64,000 bases of DNA from Bacteroidetes bacterium UBA6183 (GTDB taxonomy: Bacteria > Bacteroidota > Bacteroidia > UKL13-3): NCBI GenBank assembly GCA_002422865.1, contig DITN01000087.1, forward strand, positions 25,084-89,083, in the 5' to 3' direction. Each line of letters opens with the position of its first letter. Position 1 is the first letter of the stretch. Below are positions 13,901 to 61,253 of the stretch, piece after piece. The notes beneath the pieces are model-generated. The model saw only the letters and a list, made by a program, of their open reading frames with translations, was not told where the DNA came from and ran no database searches. Both the position numbers and the translations under genes were made by a program.

Positions 13901-15266
13901 TGAGGTGCAAAAACCATTGGCAACAGTAGTAATTGGAGGATTGGTATCGGCCACGTTTTTAACCTTATTTATTTTACCGGTATTGTATTTATTGTTTGAA
14001 AAAAGAGCCTACTTAAAAAGCAAAAAAGTAACATTGGTGTTACCGTTAATATTTTTATTGGGGTTGAATGCTATTGCACAAACAAACCAAAACTTAAGCA
14101 TGCAAGAGGCAGTACAACAAGCCTTGAGTAATAATGCGGGTATAGCAGCTAATCAAACCAACATTAACTACCAAAAGGTAATTAAACGTACCGCAACCGA
14201 ATTGCCTAAAACAGATTTTACATACATGCAGGGGCAATACAACAGCTTTTATAAAAACGATAATAACCTTACCGTTACACAAAGCATTCCGTTTCCTACC
14301 TTGTTTGTTGCGCAACAAAAATTAGGCAACAACCTAATAAAGGCTGGAGAATTGCAACTACAGCATGTAAAAAACAATTTGGCATTAGAGGTAAAACAAA
14401 CCTACACACAGCTGCAGTATTTGTATGCGCAACAAACTCTGTTACAAAAAACCGATAGCATTTATCGAAACTTTGCACGTGCTGCTTTATTAAGGTATGA
14501 TGCAGGGGAAGCAACTTTGCTCGAAAAATCTACTGCGCAAATGCATTTAATGGAGGCACAAAATCAGCTTAACCAAAACAAGTTGGAGGTTGATGCTACC
14601 TTGTTTCAATTGATGGCATTATTAAATTCAAGTAACACCATTACATTAAAAGAAAACGAACTACAACCGGTGTTACCACAACTCAATATTGATTCAACCC
14701 AAATAAAAAACAACGCGATGTTGGCTTACATGCAACAGCAAATAAATATAGCCCAACAACAAAAAAATGTAGAGTTAAATAAAACCTTACCCGATTTAAA
14801 GGTGGGTTATTTTAACCAAACACTTATTGGTTCGGTAAACTATGCCGATGCAAGTATTGCCGGTTCCGGCACACGTTTTCAAGGATTTTTATTGGGTGTA
14901 AATATTCCGCTTTGGTATTTCCCAAATGCATCCAAGATAAGGGCGGCTAACTTACAATCGCGCATTTCACAGCAGTATTACCAACAGTACGAAATTAGTT
15001 TAAACAACGAACACAAAACAGCAATTGCTGAATACAAACGTGCCAAAAACAATTTAGATTATTACATCAACAGTGCTTTACCAAATGCAGAGCTGGTGCT
15101 TAATCAGGCACAAAAATCATACAAGCAAGGCGATATTAGTTACACCGAATATTTAAATGCCATACGCAACGCAACTTTAATTAAACAAGATTATTGGCTT
15201 GCCGTTAAAAACCATAACAACTCCATATTTAAACTCCAGTTTTTGGCCGGAATTAATGAAAAATAA
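10902..15266 (+). CDS. czcA: heavy-metal-efflux RND permease (CzcA/CusA family) fused in-frame to a TolC-like outer-membrane factor (CzcC-like)
   Basis: 1454 aa. The N-terminal roughly 1040 aa is classic CzcA, 'AVPDITNNQVQILT...' with 12 transmembrane segments. After 'LFEKRA' comes an internal signal-peptide-like 'KKVTLVLPLIFLLGLNAIAQ'. It is followed by about 400 aa of TolC/OMF-like repeats ('LSMQEAVQQALSNN', coiled-coil, beta-barrel). Confidence 0.85.
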   Translation: MLEAIIRFSVRNKFIVGLFTLTLVIWGIYSLSKLPIDAVPDITNNQVQILTVAPSSGAEDIERFVTFPVEQTMATIPGIHEIRSFSRFGLSVVTIVFDDDVDVYWARQQVNERLGMAKEQIPTGMGSPELAPLTTGLGEIFQYVIHTKPGYEKKYDAMQLRTIQDWIVRRQLLGTKGVADVSSFGGKLKQYEIAIQTEKLRSLNISINEVYQALQTNNQNTGGAYIDKKPNAYFIRTEGLITSKEDIENIVVKNTSNGIPILIKNIGEVKLGSAIRYGAMTRNNQGEVVGAVVMMLKGENSSQVIKNVKERIAQIEKTLPEGVVIEPFLDRTKLVNNAIGTVSKNLLEGALIVIFVLVLMLGNFRAGLVVASVIPLAMLFAVSMMNLFGVSGNLMSLGAIDFGLIVDGAVIIVESTLHYLGLRKRTTTLTQQHMNSEVEHSASKIMKSAIFGQIIILIVYIPILALVGIEGKMFRPMAQTVSFAIIGAAILSLTYVPMMSALVLSKKVSHVPTFSDKMIAKLQVIYHDVFVWVIRKQAVVLSTIVIIFVGSIALFMTLGGEFIPQLDEGDFAVETRIMTGSSLSETVDAAQKSARVLLDNFPEVKEVVGKIGSSEIPTDPMPVEACDLMVILKEKDEWTSAETREELAEKMQHKLEENMVGVSYGFQQPIQMRFNELMTGARQDVVVKIYGEDLNQLAHYAKLVGAIAQKTEGASDVYVEQVGGLPQVVVNYYRDKIALFGLNISDVNMAIRAGFAGESAGLVFENEKRFDMVVRLDASNRTDIEDVRNLFVTTPKGDQIPIRQLADVQLKVGPNQIQRDDAKRRIVVGFNVRNSDIQTVVDNLKKSIDKEIKFEPGYYTTYGGAFKNLEDARNRLAVAVPIALLLIFMLLFFTFHSFKQAALIFTAIPLSTIGGIVALWMRDMPFSISAGIGFIALFGVAVLNGIVLIGEFNHLKLNETKNPLEIIIRGASSRLRPVLMTALVASLGFLPMALSHGSGAEVQKPLATVVIGGLVSATFLTLFILPVLYLLFEKRAYLKSKKVTLVLPLIFLLGLNAIAQTNQNLSMQEAVQQALSNNAGIAANQTNINYQKVIKRTATELPKTDFTYMQGQYNSFYKNDNNLTVTQSIPFPTLFVAQQKLGNNLIKAGELQLQHVKNNLALEVKQTYTQLQYLYAQQTLLQKTDSIYRNFARAALLRYDAGEATLLEKSTAQMHLMEAQNQLNQNKLEVDATLFQLMALLNSSNTITLKENELQPVLPQLNIDSTQIKNNAMLAYMQQQINIAQQQKNVELNKTLPDLKVGYFNQTLIGSVNYADASIAGSGTRFQGFLLGVNIPLWYFPNASKIRAANLQSRISQQYYQQYEISLNNEHKTAIAEYKRAKNNLDYYINSALPNAELVLNQAQKSYKQGDISYTEYLNAIRNATLIKQDYWLAVKNHNNSIFKLQFLAGINEK

Positions 15267-15270
15267 CATC

Positions 15271-16428
15271 ATGAAAAATTTAAAATATAAGATCATACTT
15301 ATAGCCGCAACTGTTTTATTGGGCGTGGCTTGTGGTAATAAAAATCAACCCGAAGTTGCCGAGATAACTACTGATAGCACCTCAAAAGAAATCATTGTTT
15401 TATCATCAACCCAGTTTAACAATGCGGGAATTGTTCTAGCAAAACCTATTAGCCAAAACATCAACCAAAAAATAAAAGCAAATGGTAAACTAGATGTGCC
15501 ACCACAAAATTTGGTAAGTGTATCTGCGCCTTACGGTGGTTTCCTAAAAAGCACAACCTTGTTACAAGGTATGCATGTGCATAAAGGCGAGGTAATTGCA
15601 CAAATGGAACACCCTGATTACATTCAGTTACAGCAAGATTATTTAGAGAATAAAAGCACACTTACTTATTTAAAAAACGAACTCGATAGGCAACAAGAAT
15701 TGGCTAAAGAAGAAGTAAACAGCAAAAAAACATTACAAAAAGCCAAAACAGATTTTGAGGTAATGCAAGCCCGCGTTAATGGTTTGCGCGCCAAATTAGA
15801 GTTAATAAATATTGACGTAGTTAAACTAGAGAAAGGTACCATGCAAAAAGTGGTTGCATTAACATCGCCCATCAACGGTTATGTAACCAAGGTAAATGTA
15901 AACATTGGTGCGTTTGTAACAGCCAATACCGTTCTGTTTGAAATTGTAGATACCGAACATTTACATGCAGAAATTAGTGTGTTTGAAAAAGACATACACC
16001 ACATAAAAATTGGTCAGAAAGTAGCATTTACTTTGGCCAATGAAAACCAAGAACGTTTTGCTAAGGTACATTTAATTGGCAGGGAGATTAGTGACGACCG
16101 AACTGTTCGTGTGCATTGTCATTTAAACCAAGAAGACAAAGACCTGTTACCGGGTATGTATTTAACGGCTTATATTGATGTAAAAGCCAGTACTAACAAT
16201 ACTTTACCCAGCAATGCCTTTGTTGATTTTGAGGGTAAATCGTATGTGTTTTTGTTGAGTAAAAAACTAAACGACAGTTATACTTTTGCCCGTATTGAGG
16301 TAGAGAAACTTGGCGAAGAAAATGGATTTACAGCCTTTACATCAACCCAGGAATTAAACAATAAAGACATTGTTACCGAAGGGGCATATAAGTTGCTTTC
16401 GGCTATGCAAGGTGGCGAGGAAGAATAG
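15271..16428 (+). CDS. efflux RND periplasmic adaptor (membrane fusion protein, CzcB-like) lipoprotein. An alternative start at 15256 overlaps the czcA stop.
   Basis: 'MKNLKYKIILIAATVLLGVAC' carries a lipobox. Biotinyl/lipoyl-like and beta-barrel membrane-fusion-protein segments are present. The ORF-track extension to 15199 runs into czcA and is unlikely. Confidence 0.85.
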   Translation: MKNLKYKIILIAATVLLGVACGNKNQPEVAEITTDSTSKEIIVLSSTQFNNAGIVLAKPISQNINQKIKANGKLDVPPQNLVSVSAPYGGFLKSTTLLQGMHVHKGEVIAQMEHPDYIQLQQDYLENKSTLTYLKNELDRQQELAKEEVNSKKTLQKAKTDFEVMQARVNGLRAKLELINIDVVKLEKGTMQKVVALTSPINGYVTKVNVNIGAFVTANTVLFEIVDTEHLHAEISVFEKDIHHIKIGQKVAFTLANENQERFAKVHLIGREISDDRTVRVHCHLNQEDKDLLPGMYLTAYIDVKASTNNTLPSNAFVDFEGKSYVFLLSKKLNDSYTFARIEVEKLGEENGFTAFTSTQELNNKDIVTEGAYKLLSAMQGGEEE

Positions 16429-20247: not shown

Positions 20248-21135
20248 TTAGTTTTTAATAATCTTTTGTATTGATATCCCTTCATCTGTGGTTATTTCAA
20301 ATAAATACATCCCATTTGAAAAACCAGATAAATCAATTTCCGATTCTGACTCTTGTTTGGTAATATTTAACATTTCTATACCGCTTAATGTTGTTAAACG
20401 CGCCTTGAATCCACCCTTACTTTTTGTTGTAATGTGCAATACATCTTTAACTGGGTTAGGGTAAGCAGTAATAACATCTGTAGTGTACATATTGTTAACT
20501 CCAGTATTGTATGTTATGGCAAAATCATCAATAAACAATACACTTCCTGCAATAGGATTAAATCCGTCAATACTTGATGTAATGATCATAAAAGCCGAAT
20601 CTGGTTGTGCTGATGAGAAATAGTTAATATTAACTTCAACCCTGGTGTAAACATCTACAGAATCGCCTTTCTGAAAAATCGCCTCACCAATGGTATCTGT
20701 TCTTAGTGTAGATGGATTCCATTTTGTGAGCGCCATATAAAAGTTACAACTATCACCATCGGCTGGAGCATATTTGTAAAAAAACACCAACGATTTTGGA
20801 CGGGATAAAAATGCAAATTTTATTTGACTAAAATCTACATCACCTGATGAGTTAAGAACCGGACCGGAAGCCAGTAAACCGGGAATATCTTGAAATTGGT
20901 TTGCCTGACTTTTAAGTTGCACTGCATTGCTGCCCGAATAAGCATCGGAAGAAAGTGTTGTACTAGACTGGTACCCAAATGCCACCAACGAATTTAACGT
21001 GTACCAATACTGTGGCTCTTGATAATCACCTTTGTCAACCCAAGTTTCAAAACCACCATTAGCAAAAGGGCTTTGAGCAAAATTGGTTGTTGCTAAAATC
21101 ATTAACATAACAACCCAAATAATTTTTGTTTTCAT
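20248..21135 (-). CDS. T9SS type-A sorting-domain secreted protein
   Basis: Signal peptide 'MKTKIIWVVMLMILATTNFAQ'. The C-terminal 'AYPNPVKDVLHI...GMYLFEITTDEGISIQKIIKN' is a Por-secretion type-A C-terminal domain. Confidence 0.8.
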   Translation of the reverse strand: MKTKIIWVVMLMILATTNFAQSPFANGGFETWVDKGDYQEPQYWYTLNSLVAFGYQSSTTLSSDAYSGSNAVQLKSQANQFQDIPGLLASGPVLNSSGDVDFSQIKFAFLSRPKSLVFFYKYAPADGDSCNFYMALTKWNPSTLRTDTIGEAIFQKGDSVDVYTRVEVNINYFSSAQPDSAFMIITSSIDGFNPIAGSVLFIDDFAITYNTGVNNMYTTDVITAYPNPVKDVLHITTKSKGGFKARLTTLSGIEMLNITKQESESEIDLSGFSNGMYLFEITTDEGISIQKIIKN

Positions 21136-23074: not shown

Positions 23075-23122
23075 TTTATAGTACTTTATAATTTGTGTGC
23101 GAAACTAACTAAAATAAGGGTG

Positions 23123-23156
23123 CAAACAAAAAGGGTGCCCGCATGCGGGCACCCTC
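23123..23156 (-). terminator. strong GC hairpin terminator downstream of the giant adhesin gene
   Basis: Perfect 10-bp stem GGGTGCCCGC/GCGGGCACCC with loop ATG, followed by TTTTTGTTTG on the minus strand. Confidence 0.7.
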
Positions 23157-23179: not shown

Positions 23180-26100
23180 TTATTCTCTGATTAAAGTTAC
23201 TGTTCCATTAACAGTTTTCTTCTCACCATTCAATAATTCGTATTTAAATACGAAGAAATAAGTCCCTTCAGGGCAATCACTTCCATCATTCATGTTCGTA
23301 CCATTCCAATCGTATGAGGCATTGGTACTTTCAAATACCTTGGTACCCCAACGGTTGTATATTACTAAGTCGTATTCTTTTTCTCCTTTAATTTTAATAT
23401 CGAAGAAATCGTTAGTTCCATCCTTAGGACTTGGTGTAAACACATTATAAATTTCTAACTCAATAATGAATCGGTAAGAAATCGTTTGACAAACACTGTC
23501 CATACAAACAGGTTTGGCAGGATCGGGGGTAAACGCTTGCAAGCATATTACAACATCACCGGTATCTGTACCAAAGTCAAAACTCCAATCCCTATCAGAC
23601 TCCACTTTATCAACCTGACCAATAATATTACCATTCTTCGATGCGGTCCAAGTGTATTCACTTGATGAAACTGAGGTATTTCTGAATCCAAACTTTGGTG
23701 AATTTGCAGCAGAATCGATGTTAAAACTTGCAAAAGGACGAACCACACGAACGGAAGCTGTATCAAACAACTTACAATTAGGCAATCCAGGTGCTATTTT
23801 AGTAGGGAAAAGCCTTACGCTGTAGTTACCGGTATCTTGGAATGTATAGGTAAACTTGTTATCTAAATTCGTTTTTATGATTGAATCGATGAGTAAGTCG
23901 CCATCATCATTAATCATTTCGTATTTAAACTCTGTGTAGCTAATTGTATCAGATTCATTTGTAACAGTAAATGGCTGATCAACACAAACTACTTGTTTAT
24001 CTATACTAATTTGAGCAGGATAAGATTTTTTGACTGTAATACGAATAGGAGCATTAATTCCATCTACCGTATCAGGATAATTAACAATCCTACATCCAAT
24101 ATTATCCGATTGAGGGTTGTTATCATCACTTCTAGCGAATATGTAGTAAGTACCTGAATCATTGTAAGTAAATGTTAACGTATCGTACTGATTCAAACTG
24201 ACAGAAGACTGCTGGTTAGCGTCACCCCAAAGAATATCAGTACGTTTTGTTGGCTTATCGTTTGGACCGGTTGCACCGGCTACGTCAGCCAAGTTTACAA
24301 CTTTTACAGTAAATGGTGCGCAACCAACGGTATCTGTTATTACTTGGAAACCAGGGCGAGGTCCGAGTATATTCAAATTAACAAAAGCAGTATCCTTACA
24401 TCCTTGTGCTGTTTCAACAACTAACTTAATTCTGAATGCACCATTACCACGATAGTTCCAAACAGGAGTATCAATGTACTGTGCATCAAAACGTAAGGTG
24501 TCTGTTTTGCGCTCGCCAAAGAACCAGTAGTTTCTGTTTACCAAATCTCCTGATCCAGCATTAGGCTCAAAACGAATACTATCAAACTTGTTATAAGTGT
24601 ATCCAGGGATAGGTGTCATGGTAGAACGATCGTAGAAAGTAACAGGAGCTCCACAATTGTATATACCAGGCTTAATAACAGGAATTGCATTTGGTTCAGT
24701 AACCAATACACGGCAATAAGCAGTGTCCCAACAACCGTTTTTATCACGACTTAACATTGTTACGGTGTATTCTCCAGCTTGTTTATATTGGTGAACCGGG
24801 TTAGTCCATGATGCAGAATCTCCATCACCAAAGTAGTACTTAACCTTTTCAATAAAGTCGCCACAAGGATAAAACTCATTGATATCTACAGCGCCATTTC
24901 TCCAATAATTAACTGTGTCATAATGGTAACTGCTATGTGGATCATTATAAGCAGCGCCTATAGTAACCTTACATGTTGTAAGGTCTTTACTTGGTAAACC
25001 ATTAGGATTAAAAATTGGATGCGATAATGAGCAATCAGGACGGTAGTAACGAATTGAATCATAAAAATGAACAGGTTCATTTTTACAGAAAACCTCATCG
25101 AAATTTCCTTTTGCATCACGTGTCATTACAGAATCAATTACGCCTCGTACCAAAAGTTTGTTGTCAGTGTATTCTGCCTTACAATCCTTTGTGCTCATTA
25201 ATTTATGACTTACAGGACGCGGTGCAGAACCCGAACGTTTACAATCATCTTCATATGAACTTGACCAATATCTGTGTTTAACAGGTAATAACATTTTAGC
25301 TTGATCCATTTCTTCAGTTCTGTAAAATGTCTTAGTAGTATCAACGTCAGCAATGGTGAATCTTTTTCCACACTCTTCCCAAATTGTGGAATCATTTGTG
25401 GTAACTCGTCCGATATAATACAATGAACCGTTAGGATTAGCACTTGCATCGTATATACGCATGGTATAATTATCAATGTAGCGGAAGGTAACATTTGCAC
25501 CTGGTATACCATTAGGGAAAGGAATACTATCTATCAAATCGCCTATGTTTTTTTCGCCACAAACACCAAAGTAGTAGTTGTAACGAACCCTGCGGAAACC
25601 ATTCACAAAATAACCATCTGTTAATCCAGGTTTAGGGCTGTAGTAGAAACTATCAACTGTAATAGAATTGTCGCCCCAGCTAATGGTGCTGCTATGAATG
25701 TATGATTGAACACTGTCTAAATAAACAAAGTTAATTAAAGCATTTTTACAGTAGTATTTACATTCACCATTCACAGGTACGTTTGTTATAGGGTCATAAA
25801 CAGGATCAACATAAAAACGTCCATCCATATCTGTTATGTTTAACAAATTATGATACCAAACCGTATCAGAAATACAAGGCATGTTTGGATCTCCTGTACC
25901 AATAATTAAACCCACCGTAATATCACCTGTTGGGTTAGCAGGAGGAAATAGCGTGATACCACTTTGTGTTACCTGAAGTGGATTCACGTTAGAGCCATAG
26001 TGATACCAAAAATTAGTTCCACCTGGTGCATTCCACCTGTTTGGTGGCATAAAATATTGGTTGTAATCAGGTTGTAAAGAAAATGGAGGATATGTTAAAC

Positions 26101-28681
26101 CACCAGCAGTTGATGACAAAACACCACCAGCTTGAGGTGCAGGACCGGTTGCTCCTGTATAGTTAATAAATCCATCAAGGGCGCAAGGGGTAGCATCTCT
26201 TCTGTCTGCCATCGAATCTAAGTTCATGCGAATCCAAGCTGCACCGCAATCTGGGCTAATACCAGGGTATTGACCTAAAGTATTATCAACTGCCCCTAAC
26301 ATAAATTGAATACCTGCTTGATCGTTTTGAATATAACTACCAGGACATTCTTTACCTCTAATTCCTAAACCGGTAGCATCAGGGCGCATTAATTTCAATT
26401 GAACTTGATCATCGTCTTTACAATCTAATGAATCGAGTTTAATAAAATCATCTGCAACAATGTATGTTTTATTACCTACGTTATTCATTGAGTCTTGTAC
26501 AAACTGCTCAACGTTATAACATCTTTGAACAGCCTTATCAAACAAATAACGATAAAGTGTTCTTGAAGGATCAACCATTGTTTCATAGTTGTGTCGCATA
26601 AATTCGCCTTGCAAAGTTGTGTACTTCGCCTCCATGGTATCATTTAATGGGTCAACAACAAATCCCTTAGGGAAAAACCCGTATCCACCACGTTTAGTAT
26701 TACCCCAGAAACCGGCAACCGGATCTGGTGCACCGTTTTGTAATGTAAATCTATTAAACGGTCTTAAATCTTGCTGATTAGGTTGACCATTTTCATCAAA
26801 AGAATCTACTGTGTCTATCCTTGGCCATAAACCATAAGGCGCAGGACCAGAGCCTTGCGTTAAACTCCAAACCCCAGTTTGTGGATTAAGATAGACCGGC
26901 TTGCCCCACCATTGCGTATCTGCGGGATGCACAAGCGTTTTTCTTGGATTAGCAGTAGGAAGTGTATCGGCAGGATTAGTTGAATATTGTTGCGGATTCC
27001 ATGGCATAAAATCATGACCATAACGATACCACCTGTATATCACATCCCAACCCGTGTATCGGTGAACAGGCAAGGTATCTGCAGAATAACGGCAATCTAA
27101 ACGTCTTCCTTCAAATACTTTACCATCTTGGCGCCAATAGCCATCACTAAAATTGTATTGATCTTGAGCAGTAGCCCAGCCTCCTGGAGGTGGATACCCT
27201 GGCTTAGGTACAAGGTAAGAAGTACACTGAGGAGCCGCATCATCACCAAAATCCCAACGCCTGAAAACGTGCTCTGATTTATAACGTTGCTCTGTGTTAA
27301 CAAAGTTAATTACGTTGTAATAACCAGAAGCATTAGGGTTACATTGGTTTTGTTCTGTTGGGTTAAGCGTAATTTGGTTTTGTGGGTCTTCTATCCTCGC
27401 ACGCGGACCTAATACCTCCACAACTATCGTGGTATCTTTTCTACAGCTTGGGTTAGGCTGTAATGGCCAAACCAATAAATTTACGTTATATGCTCCAAGA
27501 CCACGCATAAAGGTATGTGGCGGATTCCAAGAGCTGTTGTTAAAATTGTCTTGCTGTGACGGTGGATCTCCGAAATTCCATAATAATTCTCCATTACCTG
27601 GGTTAATTTCAGGGTTTGGTGTTTGCACAAAGGTTAGTGTTTTTAAACCCTCTCTATCGTAACAAACTGAATCGCGTCTTAGTCTTAATGAAGTATCAGG
27701 AAGATTTAAGTATGGTGTAGGATCTAATTCTACGATAATATTTTTCGGCTTATTTGCTGACATCGCAGATGTCATTACATAACTATCTATACAACCTGTG
27801 GTGTCTTCTATGGTTAACGCTGGATAAAATGTACCATTTTTGCAATAATTGTGTGTAATAAGGTAATATTCGTTTTCATCTTGGGGCAAGCTCCATGGAC
27901 GACTACGTGTTACTGATTGACCATCTCCAAAATCCCATGTATAGCTATTTACTTGACTAAATGGAACCTGAGCTGTAGTATTTTGTAATGAATACGGTGT
28001 ACAGAAGCAACCCGCATTACCTAATACTGCAAATGAAGGAGCAAGATTTGGCTTTATGGTTAACAATCCATTATAGGTTACAGCATTTCTGCACCCTACA
28101 CTGTCTACTACTCTTACTGTAATATTAAATTGTCCATTTGCATTAAACGAGTGCGAATATGTTTGTCCAGTTACAGGAAAAGGAAACACATCAATGTTAC
28201 CATCACCCCAAATAACCTCAGTACGATAAATGCGGTTGTCTGTTTTAACAGAGGTGTTGGTTAGCGTAACCAGGTTACCTCTGAAACATTGCACAGCTTG
28301 TCCGTTTACAGTCGCCCCCGGAATAGGTAAACGATAAACAATAGCAGAAGTGGTTTGTGCAACTTTGGCACCGTTGCTTAAGTTAACTTCCACCTTAATA
28401 ATGTAGTTACCTGGAGCAGGATAAAGATACTGTGTACTGTAGTTTGGACCACTATTAGGAATAGTAGTTTCCACCGTTCCATCATTATTGTAATCGAACG
28501 TGCAGTTAGTAGCAGTAACACCTGCAGGAAGACCTGTAAGTGCCGCATCAATACTAAGCTGATCGCCCAAACAAATGGTTGGTGAGGACAGTGTTAGAGC
28601 CAACGACTGCGCATAAGCAGACCTAAAGCCCAACAACGACAGCAAAAGCAACAAATAGACTTTTAGTACTTGTTTTTTCAT
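23180..28681 (-). CDS. giant T9SS type-B (gliding-motility-associated C-terminal domain) surface protein with multiple PKD-like domains. The ORF extends to 28771, but the signal-peptide Met is at 28681.
   Basis: Signal peptide 'MKKQVLKVYLLLLLSLLGFRSAYAQ'. Many 'WxFGDG' PKD motifs. The C-terminal 'NVFTPSPKDGTNDFFDIK...YNRWGTKVFES...GTYFFVFKY...GTVTLIRE' is a type-B sorting domain. Confidence 0.9.
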   Translation of the reverse strand: MKKQVLKVYLLLLLSLLGFRSAYAQSLALTLSSPTICLGDQLSIDAALTGLPAGVTATNCTFDYNNDGTVETTIPNSGPNYSTQYLYPAPGNYIIKVEVNLSNGAKVAQTTSAIVYRLPIPGATVNGQAVQCFRGNLVTLTNTSVKTDNRIYRTEVIWGDGNIDVFPFPVTGQTYSHSFNANGQFNITVRVVDSVGCRNAVTYNGLLTIKPNLAPSFAVLGNAGCFCTPYSLQNTTAQVPFSQVNSYTWDFGDGQSVTRSRPWSLPQDENEYYLITHNYCKNGTFYPALTIEDTTGCIDSYVMTSAMSANKPKNIIVELDPTPYLNLPDTSLRLRRDSVCYDREGLKTLTFVQTPNPEINPGNGELLWNFGDPPSQQDNFNNSSWNPPHTFMRGLGAYNVNLLVWPLQPNPSCRKDTTIVVEVLGPRARIEDPQNQITLNPTEQNQCNPNASGYYNVINFVNTEQRYKSEHVFRRWDFGDDAAPQCTSYLVPKPGYPPPGGWATAQDQYNFSDGYWRQDGKVFEGRRLDCRYSADTLPVHRYTGWDVIYRWYRYGHDFMPWNPQQYSTNPADTLPTANPRKTLVHPADTQWWGKPVYLNPQTGVWSLTQGSGPAPYGLWPRIDTVDSFDENGQPNQQDLRPFNRFTLQNGAPDPVAGFWGNTKRGGYGFFPKGFVVDPLNDTMEAKYTTLQGEFMRHNYETMVDPSRTLYRYLFDKAVQRCYNVEQFVQDSMNNVGNKTYIVADDFIKLDSLDCKDDDQVQLKLMRPDATGLGIRGKECPGSYIQNDQAGIQFMLGAVDNTLGQYPGISPDCGAAWIRMNLDSMADRRDATPCALDGFINYTGATGPAPQAGGVLSSTAGGLTYPPFSLQPDYNQYFMPPNRWNAPGGTNFWYHYGSNVNPLQVTQSGITLFPPANPTGDITVGLIIGTGDPNMPCISDTVWYHNLLNITDMDGRFYVDPVYDPITNVPVNGECKYYCKNALINFVYLDSVQSYIHSSTISWGDNSITVDSFYYSPKPGLTDGYFVNGFRRVRYNYYFGVCGEKNIGDLIDSIPFPNGIPGANVTFRYIDNYTMRIYDASANPNGSLYYIGRVTTNDSTIWEECGKRFTIADVDTTKTFYRTEEMDQAKMLLPVKHRYWSSSYEDDCKRSGSAPRPVSHKLMSTKDCKAEYTDNKLLVRGVIDSVMTRDAKGNFDEVFCKNEPVHFYDSIRYYRPDCSLSHPIFNPNGLPSKDLTTCKVTIGAAYNDPHSSYHYDTVNYWRNGAVDINEFYPCGDFIEKVKYYFGDGDSASWTNPVHQYKQAGEYTVTMLSRDKNGCWDTAYCRVLVTEPNAIPVIKPGIYNCGAPVTFYDRSTMTPIPGYTYNKFDSIRFEPNAGSGDLVNRNYWFFGERKTDTLRFDAQYIDTPVWNYRGNGAFRIKLVVETAQGCKDTAFVNLNILGPRPGFQVITDTVGCAPFTVKVVNLADVAGATGPNDKPTKRTDILWGDANQQSSVSLNQYDTLTFTYNDSGTYYIFARSDDNNPQSDNIGCRIVNYPDTVDGINAPIRITVKKSYPAQISIDKQVVCVDQPFTVTNESDTISYTEFKYEMINDDGDLLIDSIIKTNLDNKFTYTFQDTGNYSVRLFPTKIAPGLPNCKLFDTASVRVVRPFASFNIDSAANSPKFGFRNTSVSSSEYTWTASKNGNIIGQVDKVESDRDWSFDFGTDTGDVVICLQAFTPDPAKPVCMDSVCQTISYRFIIELEIYNVFTPSPKDGTNDFFDIKIKGEKEYDLVIYNRWGTKVFESTNASYDWNGTNMNDGSDCPEGTYFFVFKYELLNGEKKTVNGTVTLIRE

Positions 28682-28796
28682 TGTACTTGTTTGATGTTTT
28701 GTTAGCCGCAACAAACCAACATCAGCTGGCTTATTGGGTTTGATTTTTAATTGATAATAATACGCTAACATATATATTTAAATTTAGAATTTCAAA

Positions 28797-29708
28797 CTAT
28801 AATTTAAGAAGTATAAGTCCCTTCTCTACTTTTGGCTCGTTCATGCCCTTTAATTGATACCTAAATGCCAACACATAAACACCCGGTTCACATGCTTCAC
28901 CGTTCCTCTGGTTAATACCATTCCAGTGTTTGCTTTTATCTCTACTTTCAAAAACCACGTTACCTTTTGCGTCTGTTATTTTTAAATCATACAGCACTTC
29001 GTTTTCAAGTGTAATTACAAATTCATCATTGTAACCATCGTTATTGGGTGTAAATACGTTTGGTATATTTGGCCTTAAAAACTCTTCACTTGTTATATTT
29101 TGGTTTGATGTATTATTGGTAGACGTTTCCTTGGTTTCTTGTTTTGTTTTTTCCGTGGTTGCGGTTGCATTTTGTTGCATCTTGTTTGTTGATACCGCCT
29201 CTTCTTCATTTACAACCATATTGGTTGAGGTTGGTACCGGATAATCCACCGGCACTTCTTCGTCCGGAAAATCACCACAAGCAATGATTTTATTTTGAAC
29301 CTTTTTACTTGTAGGTGTTGATGGTGAATTTGGTCTTTGGGGCAATTCTGCTGTTTGGTTTACCGCATTTGTTTCATCAGAAGTTTGAATTTCTTCGACA
29401 TTTTTTGCTTCTGGTAACGTTTCTCTTATTGTTATACTCGATTGTTCTGTGTTGCTTGATGGTGTGTTGTTAGATGATATATAAATTACATACCCTACTG
29501 CACCCGCTGCTATAGTTGCCGCTGCTATTACCATTGTTTTTATAGAAACACCGGCAATAGTTTTAGCGGCAGCAGTGGTTGCAGATGATGCCGTTGCAAC
29601 ATCAGGCAATTGGCTGCTAATGTTTTGCCATAGACCTGCCGGAGGTTCAGGAGATAACCTTCCCATTTCCTGCTTAAGCAAATCATCTATGTTTATTTTA
29701 TTACTCAT
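28797..29708 (-). CDS. anti-sigma-factor-like membrane protein carrying a C-terminal T9SS type-B sorting domain
   Basis: The N-terminal 'IDDLLKQEMGRLSPEPPAGLWQNISSQL' resembles Bacteroidetes anti-sigma N-terminal domains. A single TM 'MVIAAATIAAGAVGYVIYI' follows, then a Ser/Thr/Asn/Glu-rich linker of about 150 aa. The C-terminal 'NVFTPNNDGYNDEFVI...GVYVLAFRY' is a type-B C-terminal domain. Sits 4 nt downstream of the ECF sigma gene. Confidence 0.75.
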   Translation of the reverse strand: MSNKINIDDLLKQEMGRLSPEPPAGLWQNISSQLPDVATASSATTAAAKTIAGVSIKTMVIAAATIAAGAVGYVIYISSNNTPSSNTEQSSITIRETLPEAKNVEEIQTSDETNAVNQTAELPQRPNSPSTPTSKKVQNKIIACGDFPDEEVPVDYPVPTSTNMVVNEEEAVSTNKMQQNATATTEKTKQETKETSTNNTSNQNITSEEFLRPNIPNVFTPNNDGYNDEFVITLENEVLYDLKITDAKGNVVFESRDKSKHWNGINQRNGEACEPGVYVLAFRYQLKGMNEPKVEKGLILLKL

Positions 29709-29712
29709 TTAA

Positions 29713-30354
29713 TTAACTTTTCTTTTTCATTTTTTCAAGCGCCTCTTGCAGCTGCACCCTAGCCCTGCTTAACTGCGATTTTGAAGTTCCCTCGCTTATG
29801 CCCAACATTTCACCAATTTCAGCATGACCATAACCTTCTACAATAAAAAGGTTTAACACAGCACGATAGCCAGGTGGTAAGTTGTTCATGGCCAATAATA
29901 TTTCTTTTTGGCTCATGCGCTCCACCGTAAAATCGTTGTGCGCTTGGTTATAAGCAGCATCCACATCGCTATGGTACATGTGCATTTTGTTAACTCTGTA
30001 AAACTCTAATGCTGTGTTTACAAAAATGCGTTTCATCCAACCTTCAAAAGAACCTGCGAAGCTAAATTGCTCCATTTTGGTAAAAACTTTAACAAACCCG
30101 TCTTGCAAAATATCTTTCGCTTCATCAGCATTGCTGCTATAACGCAAGCACACTCCATACATGGTTTTCGAATAGGTTTCGTAAAGCGTTTTTTGCGCTA
30201 ACCTATTGCCTTTCAAACATTCCTGTATAAGTTCATGCTCGTTTTGTTTGTTCACGTTTCTACCGGTTACTTTTTCAGATGAATAATAGCTGCCCGAGGT
30301 TGCAAGGGCATGATTAAAAGTTAAAAAATTCTTTATGCAACGCAAATAATGCAT
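29713..30354 (-). CDS. RNA polymerase ECF-type sigma-70 factor. The start is uncertain; a GTG at 30255 would give about 180 aa.
   Basis: Region 2 'ELIQECLKGNRLAQKTLYETYSKTMYGVCLRYSSNADEAKDILQDGFVKVF'. Region 4 'EGYGHAEIGEMLGISEGTSKSQLSRAR'. Confidence 0.9.
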   Translation of the reverse strand: MHYLRCIKNFLTFNHALATSGSYYSSEKVTGRNVNKQNEHELIQECLKGNRLAQKTLYETYSKTMYGVCLRYSSNADEAKDILQDGFVKVFTKMEQFSFAGSFEGWMKRIFVNTALEFYRVNKMHMYHSDVDAAYNQAHNDFTVERMSQKEILLAMNNLPPGYRAVLNLFIVEGYGHAEIGEMLGISEGTSKSQLSRARVQLQEALEKMKKKS

Positions 30355-30359
30355 TATTT
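30344..30359. promoter_or_regulatory. perfect 16-bp palindrome AAATAATGCATTATTT in the divergent sigma/adhesin control region
   Basis: Read directly from the sequence. It creates an apparent ATG-CAT-TAT 'MHY' start on both strands. Confidence 0.4.
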
Positions 30360-33300
30360 ATCTAACTTAGCACACCACTTCTTGTCCGTTGTTTTGTTAA
30401 AAAATAATTTTTTGTACAGTATTTTACTGTTGTGGGCATTACTGCATCATGCACGGGCTTTTGGGCACGAGGAGCCTGCTGTGCCAAAATCAAACACCGG
30501 GTTTATTGCCAATAAAGGACAGTGGCTCAACCCTTCACAGTACTTGATAAACTTAAAAGGAGCACAAGTATTTGTTGAACCAAACGCCTTACAATATTTT
30601 TTTGAAAAAGAACAAGATGTTGCAAATTATTTTAGCCATAGCCTCAACCCGCATTTGTTTAAACCACAACTAATAAACCGCCATGCGGTAAGGGTTGAGT
30701 TTGAAAATGCATTAAAAAATCCAATTATTGGACAAGACCCATTGCCACATTATTACAACTTTTTTAACGGAAACAACCCCGACTTATGGAAGGGGAAGGT
30801 GCCTTCGTTTGCTAAGGTAACTTACTCGCAAATTTATTCTGGTGTTTCTATGCATGTTTATACCAATCAGCAAGGAGGATTAAAATATGATTTTATTGTG
30901 TCACCAAAATCATCCGCCCAACAAATAAAAATGCGCTACTTAGGGGCAAATAAGGTTAAGTTACAAAACGGCAACCTAATTATAAAAACTAGTGTTAACG
31001 AGTTTATTGAGAGCAAACCTTATGCTTACCAAACCATAAACGGTAATAACCAAGAGGTGGAATGTGCCTTTGTGTTAAAGGACAATGTGGTTTCGTTTGT
31101 GTTGGGTGATTACAACCCAAACTACAAGTTAACCATTGACCCTGAATTAATATTTAGCACTTACAGCGGCAGCAGTGTTGATAATTTTGGCCACACCGCC
31201 ACTTATGATAACAGCGGGAATTTATACACAGCCGGTATTGCCCGTAATGCAACAGACTTTCCGAATGGACGATATCCAACCACCACAGGTGCATTTCAAA
31301 CCGTTTGGGGAGGCGGAGCTGGAAGCTGGCCTCAAAATGGCTTTCCGTGCGATATTGCCATCAGTAAATACAACAACGATGGCACCGCGTTGATGTATGC
31401 CACTTATTTAGGTGGCGATAAAAACGATTATCCGTTAAGTTTAGTTGCCGATGCCAACGAACAACTTTTGGTTTTAGGCGTAACACTTTCAGCAAATTTT
31501 CCGGTTAGTTTTAACGGGGCATATAAAACAAAATCAGATTCGTTTGATATTACTGTTACCCGATTTACAGCAAGCGGTGGTGCATTGGTAGGCAGTACAT
31601 ACCTTGGTGGTAACGGTATTGATGGTATTAATATTGCCGACACTTTGCGCATGAATTACTCTGATGAGTTTAGGGGCGAGATACAACTTACACCAACAGG
31701 TGATGTGGTATTGGTGTCTTCCACAACATCAACAAATTTACCGGTAAGTTTAGGGGCTGTTCAGCCCACAAAAAACAGCTTACAAGATGGCGTAATTTTT
31801 AAATTAGATGCAGCACTTACACAGGTAAAAAATTGCACCTATTTTGGGCGAGAAAAACACGATGCATTATACTCACTAGACGTGTATCCGAATGGTGATA
31901 TAGCTATTGCTGGAGGCACACAAAGTTTGGGTTTTACGCCAACAAGTGGACCAGGTTATCGTGGAGGAATTAGCGATGCTTTTGTTGCAAAATTAAGTGC
32001 ATCATTAACTACTATTTTAGGCTTACGCTATTGGGGTAGCGGCAGCTACGATCAGGCGCATTTTGTAAAATTAGACCAAGCACAAAATGTATTAGTTATG
32101 GGCCAAACTTACGATAGCATTTTGGTTACTCCAGGTACATACTACAATGGCAGAGGTGGTTTATTTATCAGTAAGTTTTCTTCTGATTTAGCTACAATTG
32201 TTTTCTCTACTCAAATAGGAAATGGAACAGCCAATAATGCCTTAGCGCCAAGTGCTTTTATGGTTGATGTGTGTGGCAGAATTTATGGATCTGTATGGGC
32301 GGGTATTGTAAATTTTCAGTCTAGATACAGGACATTAAATCCGGCAGGTTTTGCGAGCAGTACCAACGGAATGCCTTTCACGGTAAATGCCTTTCAAACC
32401 GCTACCGATGGAAGCGATTTTTACTTGTTTGTGTTGAGCCCAAATGCTGATAGTTTAAACTATGCCACCTTTTTTGGTGAGCTATTTGGTGCCGATCACG
32501 TAGATGGTGGAACAAGCCGGTTTGATAAAAGAGGGATCATGTATCAATCGGTTTGTGCAAGTTGTAATGACGGGGTTTCGGGAACATTTCCTACAACACT
32601 TGGTAGCTATTCGCCAGCTAACAAAAGCCCCCGGTGTAGCAATGCTACATTTAAATTTGATTTCAGGCAAGGAAATGTGTTAACAGCTGATTTTAAAATT
32701 GAACCTCGAAATGGTTGCGGAAACAAACGCATGCAGTTTGTTAATAATTCGCATAATGCTACTAAAAACTATTGGTACATAAATAATATATTGGTTGATA
32801 GCACTGTAAATTATAATGACTCATTTAGTGTTTTAGGAACCTACACCGTTAAACTAAAAGTTCAAAACGCGTTCGCTTGCAATCAGGTTGACTCCATGAC
32901 AAAAACGTTTACCGTTCAAAACTCTTCCAATGCAAAAATTACGGTAATACAAGATAGTTGTGGACCGGCTGTTTTTATGTACAACCAAAGTACATCAGGT
33001 AACGGACAGCCAATACCCTACATCTGGTATTTTGGTGATGGTGATACCAGCACACTTCAAAACCCGGTTCATTTTTACAGTACAAATGGTTTTTACAATA
33101 TACGCTTAATAACAGATCCCGGAAGTTTTTGTGCAGATACAGCCTTGTATATATTGGATTATAGCCGCACCGGTAAAAACTTAAATGCCGACTTTTTACC
33201 GTTAGATTCTTTAAGGTGTGCGCCAAATATTATTGAAATAAGAAATAACAGCGAGAACGGACAACAATTTTTTTGGTATGTTAACAATCAACTGGTTTCT

Positions 33301-34965
33301 CAACAAAACATGGGATTTGATACCATTGTTGATGCAGGATTTTTTCGTGTTAAACTAGTAGCACGAGACACAACAACTTGTCAAGTTTTTGATACGTTTG
33401 AAAGGACTTTTTCGGCACTAAGCGAACGTTTTCCGGTATTTACAGAAAACCTTGATAGTTGCTCTCTTAAGGTTCGTTTTACAAACACAACCAATTTACA
33501 AATTGGTGATACCGTCAACTATCTGTGGGATTTTGGTGATGGCTTGTTATCAACCCAAGCTAACCCTACACATAAATATGCCGATACCGGATGGTACACG
33601 GTTACACTTACAACAAATATTGGGTTTCCTTGTCAACGCAATACATCAAAACAAATAAGGGTTGATGCCAACAACAGGGTTTTATTGGCGAGGTTTGATG
33701 TTACACCCGATCCGATTTGTGAACCAATTACAATCAACGCTTTAAACAACAGCATAAATTCCATAAAAAATTATTGGTATTTAAATCAACTATTGGTTGA
33801 TAGTAGTAATGCAAATTTTGGTGATACCATTTCACAAAGTGGAAATTACGATTTAATGTTGGTTGTTTATAATCCGCTTACGTGTAACGTTTACGATACT
33901 TTAGTAAAAACATTCACGGCACACGCATCATCAGTTGCGTTGTTTACCGCTAAAAAAGACAGCTGCTCTAATTTGGTTATTTTCACCAATCAATCAATAA
34001 ACAACAGCCAAACACCCATCAATTATTGGTGGAATTTTGGTGATGGACAAACATCAACCCAAACCAACCCAACACATGTTTACACAACAGACAGCATATA
34101 CATCATTACATTAATAACCAACCCAAACACCCCTTGTGCCGATACTGCAACCACAACCATTAATTACAAAGTAAATAGCCATATTTTAAAGGCAGATTTT
34201 GTGGTTACGGATAGTACAGTTTGTGCGCCTTCATACTTTAAAGCAAGCAATACAAGCACCAATGGAAAACAGTTTTTTTGGTATGTAAATAATACTTTAG
34301 TAAGCACAAACGATAGTGCATTTAACGATACGCTTAAGTTAGCCGGCAAATACAACATCAAATTAGTAGTTGTTGATAGCAACACTTGTATAATAAGCGA
34401 TACCACAGAAAAAAACATTACTGTAAACCTGAGTGCGAAAGCCGATTTTGTAATGCAGCGCGATAGTTGTTCGCTTGATGTGGTATTTAGAAACTTAAGC
34501 AGCTCTAATAATGTACCTTTAGTTTGGCGTTTTGGTGATGGAGATAGCAGCACAGAATTTAGCCCACGACACCAATATGCCGTTACCGGAATATACAAGG
34601 TTCAACTCATTTTTAGTCCCGGTACGTTTTGTGCCGATACTGCAGAAAACACTTATTTTATTGATGGAGACAGTGCACAACAAATTGTCATACCAAATGT
34701 ATTTACACCAAATGGAGATGGAATTAATGATTGTTACCAAGTTACCGGAGTAAGCCAAAAATGCGATGAATACCACATTTTAATTTACAACAGATGGGGA
34801 TCGCCTGTTTATGAAAACACTGATGGAAGTTGGTGTTGGGACGGGAAAAACCAAGGAGGAGAAGATATTCCGCAGGGTGTTTATTATTATATCATTACCA
34901 TTAAAAAGAAAAACGGCTACCAGCGTAAAGAGCACGGCACAGTTACCCTTATTCGTAATAAATAA
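30349..34965 (+). CDS. giant T9SS type-B surface protein with four tandem PKD-domain repeat units. The start is uncertain (ATG 30349, or TTG 30412 giving the signal peptide 'MYSILLLWALLHHARA').
   Basis: About 1538 aa. Repeated 'WYFGDG', 'LWDFGDG', 'WWNFGDG' and 'WRFGDG' motifs. The C-terminal 'NVFTPNGDGINDCYQV...YNRWGSPVYEN...GVYYYIITI...GTVTLIRNK' is a type-B domain. Confidence 0.88.
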   Translation: MHYLSNLAHHFLSVVLLKNNFLYSILLLWALLHHARAFGHEEPAVPKSNTGFIANKGQWLNPSQYLINLKGAQVFVEPNALQYFFEKEQDVANYFSHSLNPHLFKPQLINRHAVRVEFENALKNPIIGQDPLPHYYNFFNGNNPDLWKGKVPSFAKVTYSQIYSGVSMHVYTNQQGGLKYDFIVSPKSSAQQIKMRYLGANKVKLQNGNLIIKTSVNEFIESKPYAYQTINGNNQEVECAFVLKDNVVSFVLGDYNPNYKLTIDPELIFSTYSGSSVDNFGHTATYDNSGNLYTAGIARNATDFPNGRYPTTTGAFQTVWGGGAGSWPQNGFPCDIAISKYNNDGTALMYATYLGGDKNDYPLSLVADANEQLLVLGVTLSANFPVSFNGAYKTKSDSFDITVTRFTASGGALVGSTYLGGNGIDGINIADTLRMNYSDEFRGEIQLTPTGDVVLVSSTTSTNLPVSLGAVQPTKNSLQDGVIFKLDAALTQVKNCTYFGREKHDALYSLDVYPNGDIAIAGGTQSLGFTPTSGPGYRGGISDAFVAKLSASLTTILGLRYWGSGSYDQAHFVKLDQAQNVLVMGQTYDSILVTPGTYYNGRGGLFISKFSSDLATIVFSTQIGNGTANNALAPSAFMVDVCGRIYGSVWAGIVNFQSRYRTLNPAGFASSTNGMPFTVNAFQTATDGSDFYLFVLSPNADSLNYATFFGELFGADHVDGGTSRFDKRGIMYQSVCASCNDGVSGTFPTTLGSYSPANKSPRCSNATFKFDFRQGNVLTADFKIEPRNGCGNKRMQFVNNSHNATKNYWYINNILVDSTVNYNDSFSVLGTYTVKLKVQNAFACNQVDSMTKTFTVQNSSNAKITVIQDSCGPAVFMYNQSTSGNGQPIPYIWYFGDGDTSTLQNPVHFYSTNGFYNIRLITDPGSFCADTALYILDYSRTGKNLNADFLPLDSLRCAPNIIEIRNNSENGQQFFWYVNNQLVSQQNMGFDTIVDAGFFRVKLVARDTTTCQVFDTFERTFSALSERFPVFTENLDSCSLKVRFTNTTNLQIGDTVNYLWDFGDGLLSTQANPTHKYADTGWYTVTLTTNIGFPCQRNTSKQIRVDANNRVLLARFDVTPDPICEPITINALNNSINSIKNYWYLNQLLVDSSNANFGDTISQSGNYDLMLVVYNPLTCNVYDTLVKTFTAHASSVALFTAKKDSCSNLVIFTNQSINNSQTPINYWWNFGDGQTSTQTNPTHVYTTDSIYIITLITNPNTPCADTATTTINYKVNSHILKADFVVTDSTVCAPSYFKASNTSTNGKQFFWYVNNTLVSTNDSAFNDTLKLAGKYNIKLVVVDSNTCIISDTTEKNITVNLSAKADFVMQRDSCSLDVVFRNLSSSNNVPLVWRFGDGDSSTEFSPRHQYAVTGIYKVQLIFSPGTFCADTAENTYFIDGDSAQQIVIPNVFTPNGDGINDCYQVTGVSQKCDEYHILIYNRWGSPVYENTDGSWCWDGKNQGGEDIPQGVYYYIITIKKKNGYQRKEHGTVTLIRNK
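32640..34760 (+). repeat. four tandem copies of a two-module (PKD-like) coding repeat of about 500 nt inside the adhesin gene
   Basis: Periodic motifs NYWYINN / FFWYVNNQ / NYWYLNQ / FFWYVNNT alternate with WYFGDG / LWDFGDG / WWNFGDG / WRFGDG at about 165-aa spacing. Confidence 0.7.
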
Positions 34966-60900: not shown

Positions 60901-61253
60901 GAAAAGGTAAAATTAAGTTGAATTTAACAAATCCTTTTGGCTGTTCAGATTCAGCATTAAAAGAGGTTAGTATTGGTTCGGTGGGTATTAGTGATTTCAA
61001 TGTTTCAAACTCCTTTAGTATTGTACCAAACCCAAATAACGGAACATTTAATATTAGCTTAAACAGCTTTTCAAATGAAACAATAAACGTTAATATCTTA
61101 AATCCAATTGGTCAAATTGTTTGGACGGGGAAATACAATATTTCAAATGGCGACAACATTTTTACTATAAAAACATCACTGCCTAAAGGTGTTTATAATT
61201 TGGTTGTAGAAGGAAAGGATAATAAGAGTACTCATAAGATTACAATCTGGTAA
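57963..61253 (+). CDS. T9SS type-A sorting-domain protein with a LamG/concanavalin-like (Laminin_G_3) domain and PKD-like domains
   Basis: Signal peptide 'FTLSFSLILAYFSKAQ'. LamG signature '...DDIGVWNNALSNEQVKGIY'. The type-A C-terminal domain is 'SIVPNPNNGTFNISL...GVYNLVVEGKDNKSTHKITIW'. Confidence 0.85.
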   Translation: MKYFFTLSFSLILAYFSKAQNPYPIVPIDSIQFVSSDRLATSGNTAPDYTTPIYKNLTYGDTIRVEGLVVTNPLVYGSTARKQAYIQRINGGHWSGVCIDVVATGTGMSLNQFIQETGFYDKFLLNKKVRVTGVLRELSGNTAISLIRNNINWSNSVEWVPSNDTIVTWNEISLQDLMQKKTAEKWEGAPVIIKNVKVNSVNNTLIGSNWSISDENNNVVSISTMSAHFRRDDREDTIPKVSNSFYAPPVGTRLEYIRGIIISVNDVYTIAPQYLSDFKICDTPCAYINISSPSCAFENSNLNINIKTNNIQSDTAYLEYSLQNNFSSLVKTDTIGINSDSSQQIVSFINLPSNQYFIRIRTKVQNKISNIHSIGVSENFSLNFLDTTIGFKKDSVILSGPLGSYSYLWSIGDSSRSISAKINGKLKLQVTNHYGCIKNDSTYVILIGGIKQYDTTLCIPASFNLSVDKKTYSFQESINNNISGWWPFNGNANDESGNGNHGLVMGATLQKDRFGDNNKSYYFNYNDEITTNLNSIYGSQPRTFSFWMKNQNKQRTISPIWYGGKDDSIYAGDRFNIVMNRNEQFEVSHEGVGITASWTYFLYPSIVGDNIWHHYVYVLDSLNNRFRDLRIYRDGELISQGNFIYEYIGSNFGATPSGNNLVNTRNFNPLRFGKSQGDGTQFSSQYRAPTEFLDDIGVWNNALSNEQVKGIYRGFVNGIKTQWSTNDTTPSITVFPAKDTTFYCTFTVGSYTFTDSVKVYVKGLPDKQVSFPKLGLCDKDTINLTAANGYNYQWYKESQMISNNRIIHVSEPGRYVVVLSDSIGCGNMSDAINIFKAPTLKTNFTVNDSAQCIQNNVFVFSDSTNLDSGNYNLSWLFEQNSTSNAFNPSYTYKSVGNKLVKLVGISNYGCKDSTVKMLTVNPNPNVGFMLGDSVGLETSKPYVYSVAQQLNHTYNWDVTNGIIVNGQGSNAATIQWFNNGKGKIKLNLTNPFGCSDSALKEVSIGSVGISDFNVSNSFSIVPNPNNGTFNISLNSFSNETINVNILNPIGQIVWTGKYNISNGDNIFTIKTSLPKGVYNLVVEGKDNKSTHKITIW

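Follow-up and report, generated by a model that had tools for sequence, protein, structure and literature searches.

A type IX secretion sorting domain on a candidate anti-sigma factor encoded directly behind an ECF sigma factor gene in Bacteroidetes bacterium UBA6183

A stretch of 64,000 nucleotides from Bacteroidetes bacterium UBA6183 (contig DITN01000087.1, positions 25,084 to 89,083 of the forward strand; hereafter the window, with coordinates counted from its first letter) encodes an extracytoplasmic function (ECF) sigma factor and, directly downstream of it, a 303-aa candidate anti-sigma factor that ends in a type IX secretion system (T9SS) C-terminal sorting domain (CTD) of type B. The two are interpreted as an ECF sigma/anti-sigma pair of an undescribed kind, in which capture of the CTD by the T9SS would free the sigma factor for its own operon and for two adhesins; the probability of this reading is put at about 0.5. 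Three consecutive open reading frames (ORFs) on the minus strand encode the sigma factor, the 303-aa protein and an 1863-aa protein, and a 1538-aa ORF lies divergently on the plus strand. The gap between the sigma stop codon and the start of the 303-aa gene is 4 nt, in agreement with a first-pass annotation that was made from the letters of the window and their translated ORFs.

The gene of the 303-aa protein (28797-29708, minus strand) was characterized from its ORF, Pfam and NCBIfam matches, homologues, sigma linkage and an AlphaFold2 (AF2) model built with 17 homologues. Residues 1-35 (29604-29708, minus strand) form a conserved cytoplasmic module, MsNKINIDDLLKQElgnL..PPa..Wq.I..qL, recognized by column identity, the model and a sequence profile; it has two short predicted helices (7-18 and 25-32, predicted local distance difference test (pLDDT) ~65), and W27 is nearly invariant across the alignment. 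The single transmembrane (TM) helix (residues 57-79; 29472-29540, minus strand; AF2 and alignment) comprises 23 residues, is rich in Ala, Val, Ile, Thr and Gly and is preceded by ~56 residues. Because the Lys just before this helix is nearly invariant, the protein fits a single-pass membrane protein with its N-terminus inside. Residues 80-213 (29070-29471, minus strand) form a T/E/N/S/P-rich linker with a pLDDT below 50 and a column identity of 0.17, the disorder in the model running from 80 to ~215 (~135 residues). A canonical Sec signal peptide with n-, h- and c-regions was not found in the 303-aa protein, in which 56 residues with the two-helix module precede the hydrophobic helix.

Regarding residues 214-303 (28800-29069, minus strand), which constitute the CHU_C/type-B T9SS sorting domain, PF13585 (CHU_C, 'Type IX secretion signal domain') was matched over residues 214-299 with 55.5 bits (cut-off 27), TIGR04131 (T9SS type B sorting domain) reached 32.9 bits, just under its cut-off of 35, and a confident beta-sandwich (235-301, with strands at 237-301, pLDDT >90) was modelled at the extreme C-terminus. 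On the neighbouring bona fide giant adhesin TIGR04131 scored 36.9 bits only. A Foldseek search of PDB with the AF2 model returned only generic Ig/FN3-like sandwiches (E >0.05) and no informative relative of the CTD. The type-B CTD, the one TM helix and the long disordered linker, all three proposed in the first-pass annotation, are borne out by these matches and by the model.

The same plan is shared by ~75 full-length homologues of 291-314 aa, with identities down to 26%. Chance is ruled out as the origin of the architecture, as is the frameshift or assembly fusion that had been kept in mind earlier as an alternative, because the single ORF recurs in these homologues and in dozens of independent assemblies. 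The mean pairwise column identity was 0.52 in the N-terminal 35 residues, 0.23 in the spacer, 0.31 in the TM helix, 0.17 in the linker and 0.58 in the C-terminal domain, whereas the length of the linker is held at 121-163 residues (median 139; 34 members without inserted PKD domains), which points to selection on both protein ends and on the length of the tether, with the tether sequence left free. PKD domains are inserted between the tether and the C-terminal domain in some members. All 24 diverse members examined match both TIGR04131 and PF13585 (24/24), and the residues that define CHU_C (PNVFTPN.DG.ND, W.G, G.Y) are kept in all of them. A recent transfer of an adhesin CTD onto an anti-sigma factor was considered and rejected: identity to the CTDs of the adhesins of the same locus is ~37%, as against a mean of 52% between the anti-sigma CTDs across loci, and the latter form an orthologous lineage of their own. 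Public annotation describes members of the family just as 'gliding motility-associated C-terminal domain-containing' or 'T9SS type B sorting domain-containing'.

For the linkage to sigma factor genes, one genome per species was surveyed with hidden Markov models built from the family, covering 85 public loci and the window (86 sequences). Among the 126 CHU_C ORFs in this survey, 37 have the N-terminal helix motif together with a TM helix; a sigma gene lies directly upstream of every one of these (37/37), as against none of the 89 other CHU_C ORFs (0/89). Gaps to the sigma gene range from -46 to +87 nt in 33 of the 37, mostly as overlaps or within 7 nt, and the remaining four (L017, L019, L020 and L023) have over-extended ORF starts, with a likely ATG just past the sigma stop codon. 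The ordinary-cargo CHU_C homologues that were inspected have canonical signal peptides. In this survey the carriers belong to uncultured Bacteroidota, with rumen Bacteroidales, Lentimicrobiaceae, Flavobacteriales and Sphingobacteriales among them. The candidate anti-sigma gene also lies directly downstream of a sigma gene at loci L086 and L087, the latter from the cultured Crocinitomix algicola (WP_066758759.1), where the CHU_C form overlaps by 11 nt with a sigma gene 49% identical to that of the window. These counts correspond to the survey of Bacteroidota genomes for anti-sigma homologues with T9SS C-terminal domains that the first-pass annotation had suggested.

An index-free search of 1.84 billion cluster representatives with a profile that spans the N-terminus and the TM helix matched 3134 of them with E<=1e-3, of which 331 reached E<=1e-10; the N-terminal profile found one fragment only in a word-indexed database of 5.8 billion proteins, for whose E-value scale it is too short. 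When 121 of the best 150 profile matches were scanned against Pfam, the outer domain was CHU_C in 104, with PKD in addition in 27, and an outer-membrane beta-barrel (PF13568) instead in 6; a curated anti-sigma domain was found in none of the 121. The beta-barrel protein P0122, in which the N-terminal motif occurs four times in tandem, is encoded 9 nt downstream of an ECF sigma gene whose product is 45% identical to the sigma factor of the window. As judged from these sequences, the N-terminal module stays paired with one sigma subfamily when the outer domain changes, and each of the two alternative outer domains is directed to the outer membrane. Because it co-occurs with one sigma subfamily while the outer domain is exchanged, the N-terminal module is read as the putative sigma-binding part of an anti-sigma factor, which is the strongest indirect argument for such a role. 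Between two and five tandem copies of the ~35-residue motif (..F...L.NH.V.PP..vW..I...L) precede the TM helix in some relatives, among them P0103, P0122, P0123, P0172 and P0134. A further match, P0128 (669 aa, no TM helix, E=4.6e-16 against the N-terminal profile), carries nine tandem repeats of 'GDFRSLPPDAWQHIHAKFTRVAAES'; its N-terminal region is long and charged, its context looks unrelated, and the match to the PP..W..I motif may be due to chance or convergence.

The anti-sigma identity of the 303-aa protein is a candidate assignment, drawn from its position and topology and from its co-occurrence with one sigma subfamily. To that extent the 'anti-sigma-like' N-terminus of the first-pass annotation stands, whereas its similarity to established anti-sigma domains does not: the match to NF052375 ('anti-sigma factor') is weak (E=1.5e-4, 21.8 bits, cut-off 100; found in 3 of the 24 members), and Pfam found no match, and hence no anti-sigma domain, on the N-terminus of the 303-aa protein and the 24 diverse members. 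These results weigh against an anti-sigma role, as do a PDB sequence search with the N-terminal profile, which yielded nothing even at E<=10, and the low confidence at which the N-terminal helices were modelled. With respect to particular classes, the class I anti-sigma domain (the four-helix ASD of ~100 residues, zf-HC2/RskA-type) had no Pfam match in the 24 or the 121 members, the module having two short helices in 35 residues, and the FecR domain (PF04773) had no Pfam match in the 303-aa protein or the 24 members. A class I anti-sigma neighbour accompanies only 6% of Bacteroidetes ECF sigma factors, and another class of anti-sigma factor is therefore expected in this group (PMC7406223). In CnrY two helices suffice to block sigma2 and sigma4 (PMC7406223). 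The 303-aa protein (helices 7-18 and 25-32, TM helix 57-79) fits a CnrY-like pattern by secondary structure, at low model confidence and with no sequence similarity.

The missing curated anti-sigma domain (Pfam, 303-aa protein and 24 members) would also suit a small T9SS-exported surface protein encoded by the first gene of the sigma regulon, with an N-terminal extension and a hydrophobic segment that together serve as a signal anchor or an extended signal peptide, much like the extended signal peptide region known from autotransporters. Public annotation, which names just a gliding-motility or T9SS sorting-domain protein, would be in line with such a product, and some ECF sigma factors, e.g. 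SigP, work without an anti-sigma factor (PMC7712824). This explanation is nevertheless judged improbable, since the N-terminal module stands behind a sigma gene in all 37 cases and on none of the 89 other CHU_C proteins with ordinary signal peptides, occurs also with a different outer domain, again behind a sigma factor of the same subfamily, and fits a signal peptide poorly with its 23-residue hydrophobic helix after ~56 residues and its tandem motif copies (2-4) in relatives.

The sigma factor gene (29713-30255, minus strand) encodes 180 aa from a GTG start. Pfam matched Sigma70_r2 (PF04542) and Sigma70_r4_2 (PF08281), so that the product consists of sigma2 and sigma4 only within ~180 aa; TIGR02937 scored 88.3 bits (cut-off 42.9), and solved SigE, SigW and RpoE chains were the matches in PDB. 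Since public gene calls and all orthologues start at GTG 30255 and give 180 aa, the 213-aa ORF extending to 30354 is probably over-extended by 33 residues into promoter DNA (30256-30354, minus strand), and the upper coordinate of 30354 in the first-pass annotation is to be corrected by ~100 nt.

An AAC -35 box and a -10 box of the CGT/CAT type are typical of ECF promoters. A motif of this type, TGCAACC-N16-CATCT, lies directly upstream of the sigma gene (30277-30304, minus strand), and a second copy, TGCAACG-N16-TATCT, faces the divergent adhesin gene (30336-30363, plus strand); both were obtained from a pattern scan of the 64-kb window and from orthologue alignment, in which TTGCAACC-N16-(T)CATCT is conserved upstream of the sigma gene. 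The pattern TGCAAC-N17-YATCT has exactly two matches in the window, as compared with 0.10 expected, and 0 of 100 shuffles reach two. The two copies are 32 nt apart within the 93-nt divergent region between sigma and adhesin genes, one facing each gene. Both are conserved in L006-L013, the sigma-side copy also in L014 and L018, and the distant pairs L005, L060, L067 and L078 have a related T[GA]CAACC-N17-C[AG]TCT upstream of their sigma genes. A CGT-box ECF motif has been mapped in Flavobacterium psychrophilum (PMC9723704). We infer from this predicted ECF-type promoter that the sigma gene is autoregulated. The statistics and the conservation of the motif pair support a predicted regulon that consists of the sigma operon, including the 1863-aa adhesin, and of the divergent 1538-aa adhesin. 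Both neighbours of the pair are PKD/CHU_C proteins by Pfam, so that the flanking genes had been recognized correctly as giant type-B adhesins; their earlier proposal as plausible regulon members is strengthened by the motif, whose only two copies in the window face the sigma operon and the divergent adhesin. A scan of the operon for sigma-70 promoters and terminators gave counts not above those of shuffled sequences and does not cover Bacteroidota promoters.

The divergent adhesin (30349-34965, plus strand) is a 1538-aa DUF7948-PKD-CHU_C protein by Pfam. Its listed ATG sits inside the conserved promoter motif, and its true start is therefore probably TTG 30382 or 30394, followed by a typical signal peptide, MLKNNFLYSILLLWALLHHARA; the DNA around the plus-strand motif is invariant among orthologues whose coding sequence diverged, and the orthologue at L003 is called 15 residues shorter. 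The adhesin downstream of the anti-sigma gene (23180-28771, minus strand; PKD/CHU_C from Pfam and orthologous loci) is listed with 1863 aa, of which 30 residues (28681-28771, minus strand) precede a canonical signal peptide, MKKQVLKVYLLLLLSLLGFRSAYA, and ATG 28681 is its likely true start. In the mechanical as well as the public gene calls, three neighbouring ORFs (both adhesins and the sigma factor) look over-extended at their 5' ends. The downstream giant adhesin is found in the same position in L003, L006, L012, L014, L015, L018, L019 and L020, and the four-gene layout of DUF7948-PKD-CHU_C adhesin, sigma factor, candidate anti-sigma factor and giant PKD-CHU_C adhesin recurs in at least 10 loci, down to 28-30% identity. 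Distant sigma/anti-sigma pairs stand alone, e.g. L005 and L087 of Crocinitomix, with no adjacent adhesin genes.

Between the anti-sigma gene and the downstream adhesin lies an untranslated spacer of ~115 nt (28682-28796, minus strand; cross-locus alignment and, weakly, RNAalifold), which is present in the same position in L006, L009-L012, L014 and L018 and contains a conserved A/T-rich block, TTTGA..AAATT..ATATGTTAGC..ATTATTATCAATTAAAAA. Its hairpin varies in sequence by locus, yet the inverted repeat stays; in L010 it resembles an intrinsic terminator, with a T-run, and RNAalifold covariation is weak. The hairpin may be an attenuator or a 5'-untranslated-region element separating sigma/anti-sigma from adhesin expression. 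A terminator-like hairpin after the giant adhesin (23121-23143, minus strand), found by a consensus scan only in which the site count was not above that of shuffles, marks the probable end of the operon.

For sigma binding, contact between CTD and T9SS, direction of the signal and release, the following course is inferred from sequence; a coupling of T9SS engagement to sigma release, by pulling or processing of the anti-sigma factor, had been suggested in the first-pass annotation. The two-helix N-terminus (35 residues) would most likely hold the sigma factor against the inner membrane on its cytoplasmic side, and the TM helix and the length-conserved, disordered tether of ~140 residues would present the type-B CTD, a kind of domain recognized by PorP/SprF-like shuttles and the T9SS translocon, across the periplasm; with an estimated contour length near 50 nm, the tether would be long enough to carry the CTD to the outer membrane. 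Capture of the CTD there by the T9SS or a shuttle would make the anti-sigma factor unstable, through a pull on the tether and/or through site-1 followed by site-2 (intramembrane) proteolysis, and the sigma factor would be freed. Ala/Gly/Ser/Thr-rich TM helices are the type of substrate that is accepted by site-2 proteases, and the TM helix of the 303-aa family is rich in these residues. The free sigma factor would then act on the two divergent TGCAAC-N17-YATCT promoters, i.e., on its own operon (sigma factor, anti-sigma factor and 1863-aa adhesin) and on the 1538-aa adhesin, and adhesin synthesis would thereby be matched to the availability of the secretion or anchoring route; both adhesins share the sorting-domain class. 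The signal would be either competence of the machine or free shuttle capacity.

Type-B CTDs are recognized by a cognate PorP/SprF-like shuttle in the outer membrane and are retained by it at the surface (PMC9143113, PMC12618676). Type-A T9SS CTDs (Por_Secre_tail) are present on two other proteins of the window (20248-21135, minus strand; 57963-61253, plus strand). The organism uses both CTD classes and therefore very probably possesses a complete T9SS; a core T9SS gene was not identified among the window proteins scanned. Several points tell against a coupling to the T9SS: the substrates of this system are portrayed as proteins with a cleavable Sec signal peptide, and the reported length of functional type-B signals is 150-235 residues (PMC12618676), the 303-aa protein has just ~90 folded residues behind a disordered linker and an inner-membrane anchor, the TIGR04131 score falls short of its cut-off, and a PorP/SprF-like gene was not found among the scanned neighbours (asd, thioredoxin, DUF2452 and lytB). 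A cognate shuttle gene beside the cargo gene is frequent for type B but not universal, and F. johnsoniae has orphan type-B substrates (PMC12618676).

The sub-threshold TIGR04131 match, the generic Ig/FN3-like sandwich with its weak and generic Foldseek matches in PDB, and the outer-membrane beta-barrel that replaces CHU_C in relatives, which could mean 'reach the outer membrane' rather than 'be secreted', are what would be seen if an anti-sigma factor had exapted CHU_C as a generic periplasmic sensor of peptidoglycan, a ligand or an outer-membrane protein, signalling in a FecR-like manner with the T9SS uninvolved. The residues that define CHU_C are kept, however, and both models are matched in 24 of 24 diverse members, and every known role of the CHU_C family is in T9SS sorting or anchoring (PMC9143113, PMC12618676); exaptation is considered unlikely, if the least unlikely of the three alternatives.

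A further alternative is a homeostatic decoy, in which the anti-sigma CTD would compete for the shuttle of the adhesins and the signal would be the load of cargo rather than the integrity of the machine. With shuttles saturated by adhesin, the CTD would be free and stable and the sigma factor bound; with empty shuttles, the CTD would be captured and the sigma factor released. Adhesins and anti-sigma factor do share a CTD class within one conserved module, and a shuttle is specific and open to titration by substrates remaining bound to it (PMC12618676). That the shuttle is shared does not follow, however, from an anti-sigma CTD that belongs to a separate lineage and has just ~37% identity to the adhesin CTDs at its locus, and many members (L005; L087 of Crocinitomix) have no adjoining adhesin genes; a decoy is given little credence.

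Returning to capture of the CTD as the event that releases the sigma factor, a more far-reaching version can be put forward tentatively, and is held to be possible though rather doubtful: the T9SS translocon or a PorP/SprF-type shuttle would capture the anti-sigma CTD, pulling on or processing of the tether would free the sigma factor, the arrangement would be a FlgM-like checkpoint of secretion competence for type IX adhesins, with the first T9SS client without a signal peptide, and the two-helix module would be the missing anti-sigma class for the RpoE-like ECF sigma factors of Bacteroidota.

Of the known systems, class II (CnrY-type) membrane anti-sigma factors come closest to the way in which the 303-aa protein would work; by sequence the protein is a member of none of the anti-sigma systems compared. 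It would share with CnrY/CnrH of Cupriavidus metallidurans a short two-helix cytoplasmic N-terminus, one TM helix and a gene beside that of an autoregulated ECF sigma factor. It differs in that sequence similarity is not detectable and that its sigma binding is a prediction; further, the short periplasmic tail of CnrY contacts CnrX, whereas the 303-aa protein has a long tether and a sorting domain. In the FecR/FecI/FecA system, the periplasmic end of a single-pass anti-sigma factor reaches an outer-membrane partner, and the ECF sigma factor drives neighbouring genes for surface proteins. The window resembles this arrangement in a single-pass candidate anti-sigma factor that would reach the outer membrane, an ECF sigma factor and neighbouring surface-protein genes; a FecR domain was not detected in the 303-aa protein, however, and its presumed partner is a T9SS component or shuttle rather than a TonB-dependent transducer.

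FlgM, the anti-sigma factor of sigma-28, is exported by the machine whose late cargo is under the control of that sigma factor; it is soluble and leaves whole through the type III apparatus. The likeness lies in the proposed logic, by which a working machine would switch on the genes of its cargo, and not in homology. The 303-aa protein differs from FlgM in being anchored in the inner membrane, in being directed to the outer-membrane T9SS and in a release that would need cleavage or extraction. With type-B cargo (SprB/SprF, PG1035/PorP) it shares PF13585/TIGR04131 at the extreme C-terminus, and its gene clusters with giant type-B adhesins; it appears to lack, however, the cleavable Sec signal peptide of such cargo, having instead a predicted cytoplasmic N-terminus of ~56 residues and a TM anchor, a disordered linker rather than folded domains precedes the CTD, and a PorP/SprF gene was not found among the scanned neighbours. 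The PorA-PorXY-SigP system of Porphyromonas gingivalis likewise involves a CTD-bearing protein that signals to a T9SS-connected ECF sigma factor, but PorA, a type-A CTD protein of the cell surface, works via a two-component system and is no membrane anti-sigma factor encoded beside a sigma gene (PMC7712824). PorA is the sole precedent found for signalling from a CTD protein to an ECF sigma factor. A description of an anti-sigma factor with a T9SS domain or of this architecture was not found in the literature searched.

Elsewhere in the window, a 1454-aa ORF (10902-15266, plus strand) joins an AcrB/RND transporter (ACR_tran, residues 5-1032) to a TolC-like OEP domain (1268-1450), and the gene of a membrane-fusion protein (15199-16428) overlaps its downstream end. 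An inner-membrane pump fused to its own outer-membrane channel is unusual and could reflect read-through or a sequencing artefact.

The sigma/anti-sigma module with a T9SS-addressed outer domain is widespread and is not annotated as such. The regulation of T9SS cargo and of gliding adhesins is poorly understood, and most ECF sigma factors of Bacteroidota are without a recognized anti-sigma partner; the module is a concrete and widespread candidate for both gaps, as a short membrane anti-sigma factor with an outer end destined for the outer membrane or the T9SS. The predicted promoter motif, the two-adhesin regulon and the cultured carrier Crocinitomix algicola make the idea directly testable. 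If it is true, the statement that every protein with a T9SS CTD is Sec-exported cargo would need to be revised, and the T9SS would gain a transcription checkpoint coupled to secretion.

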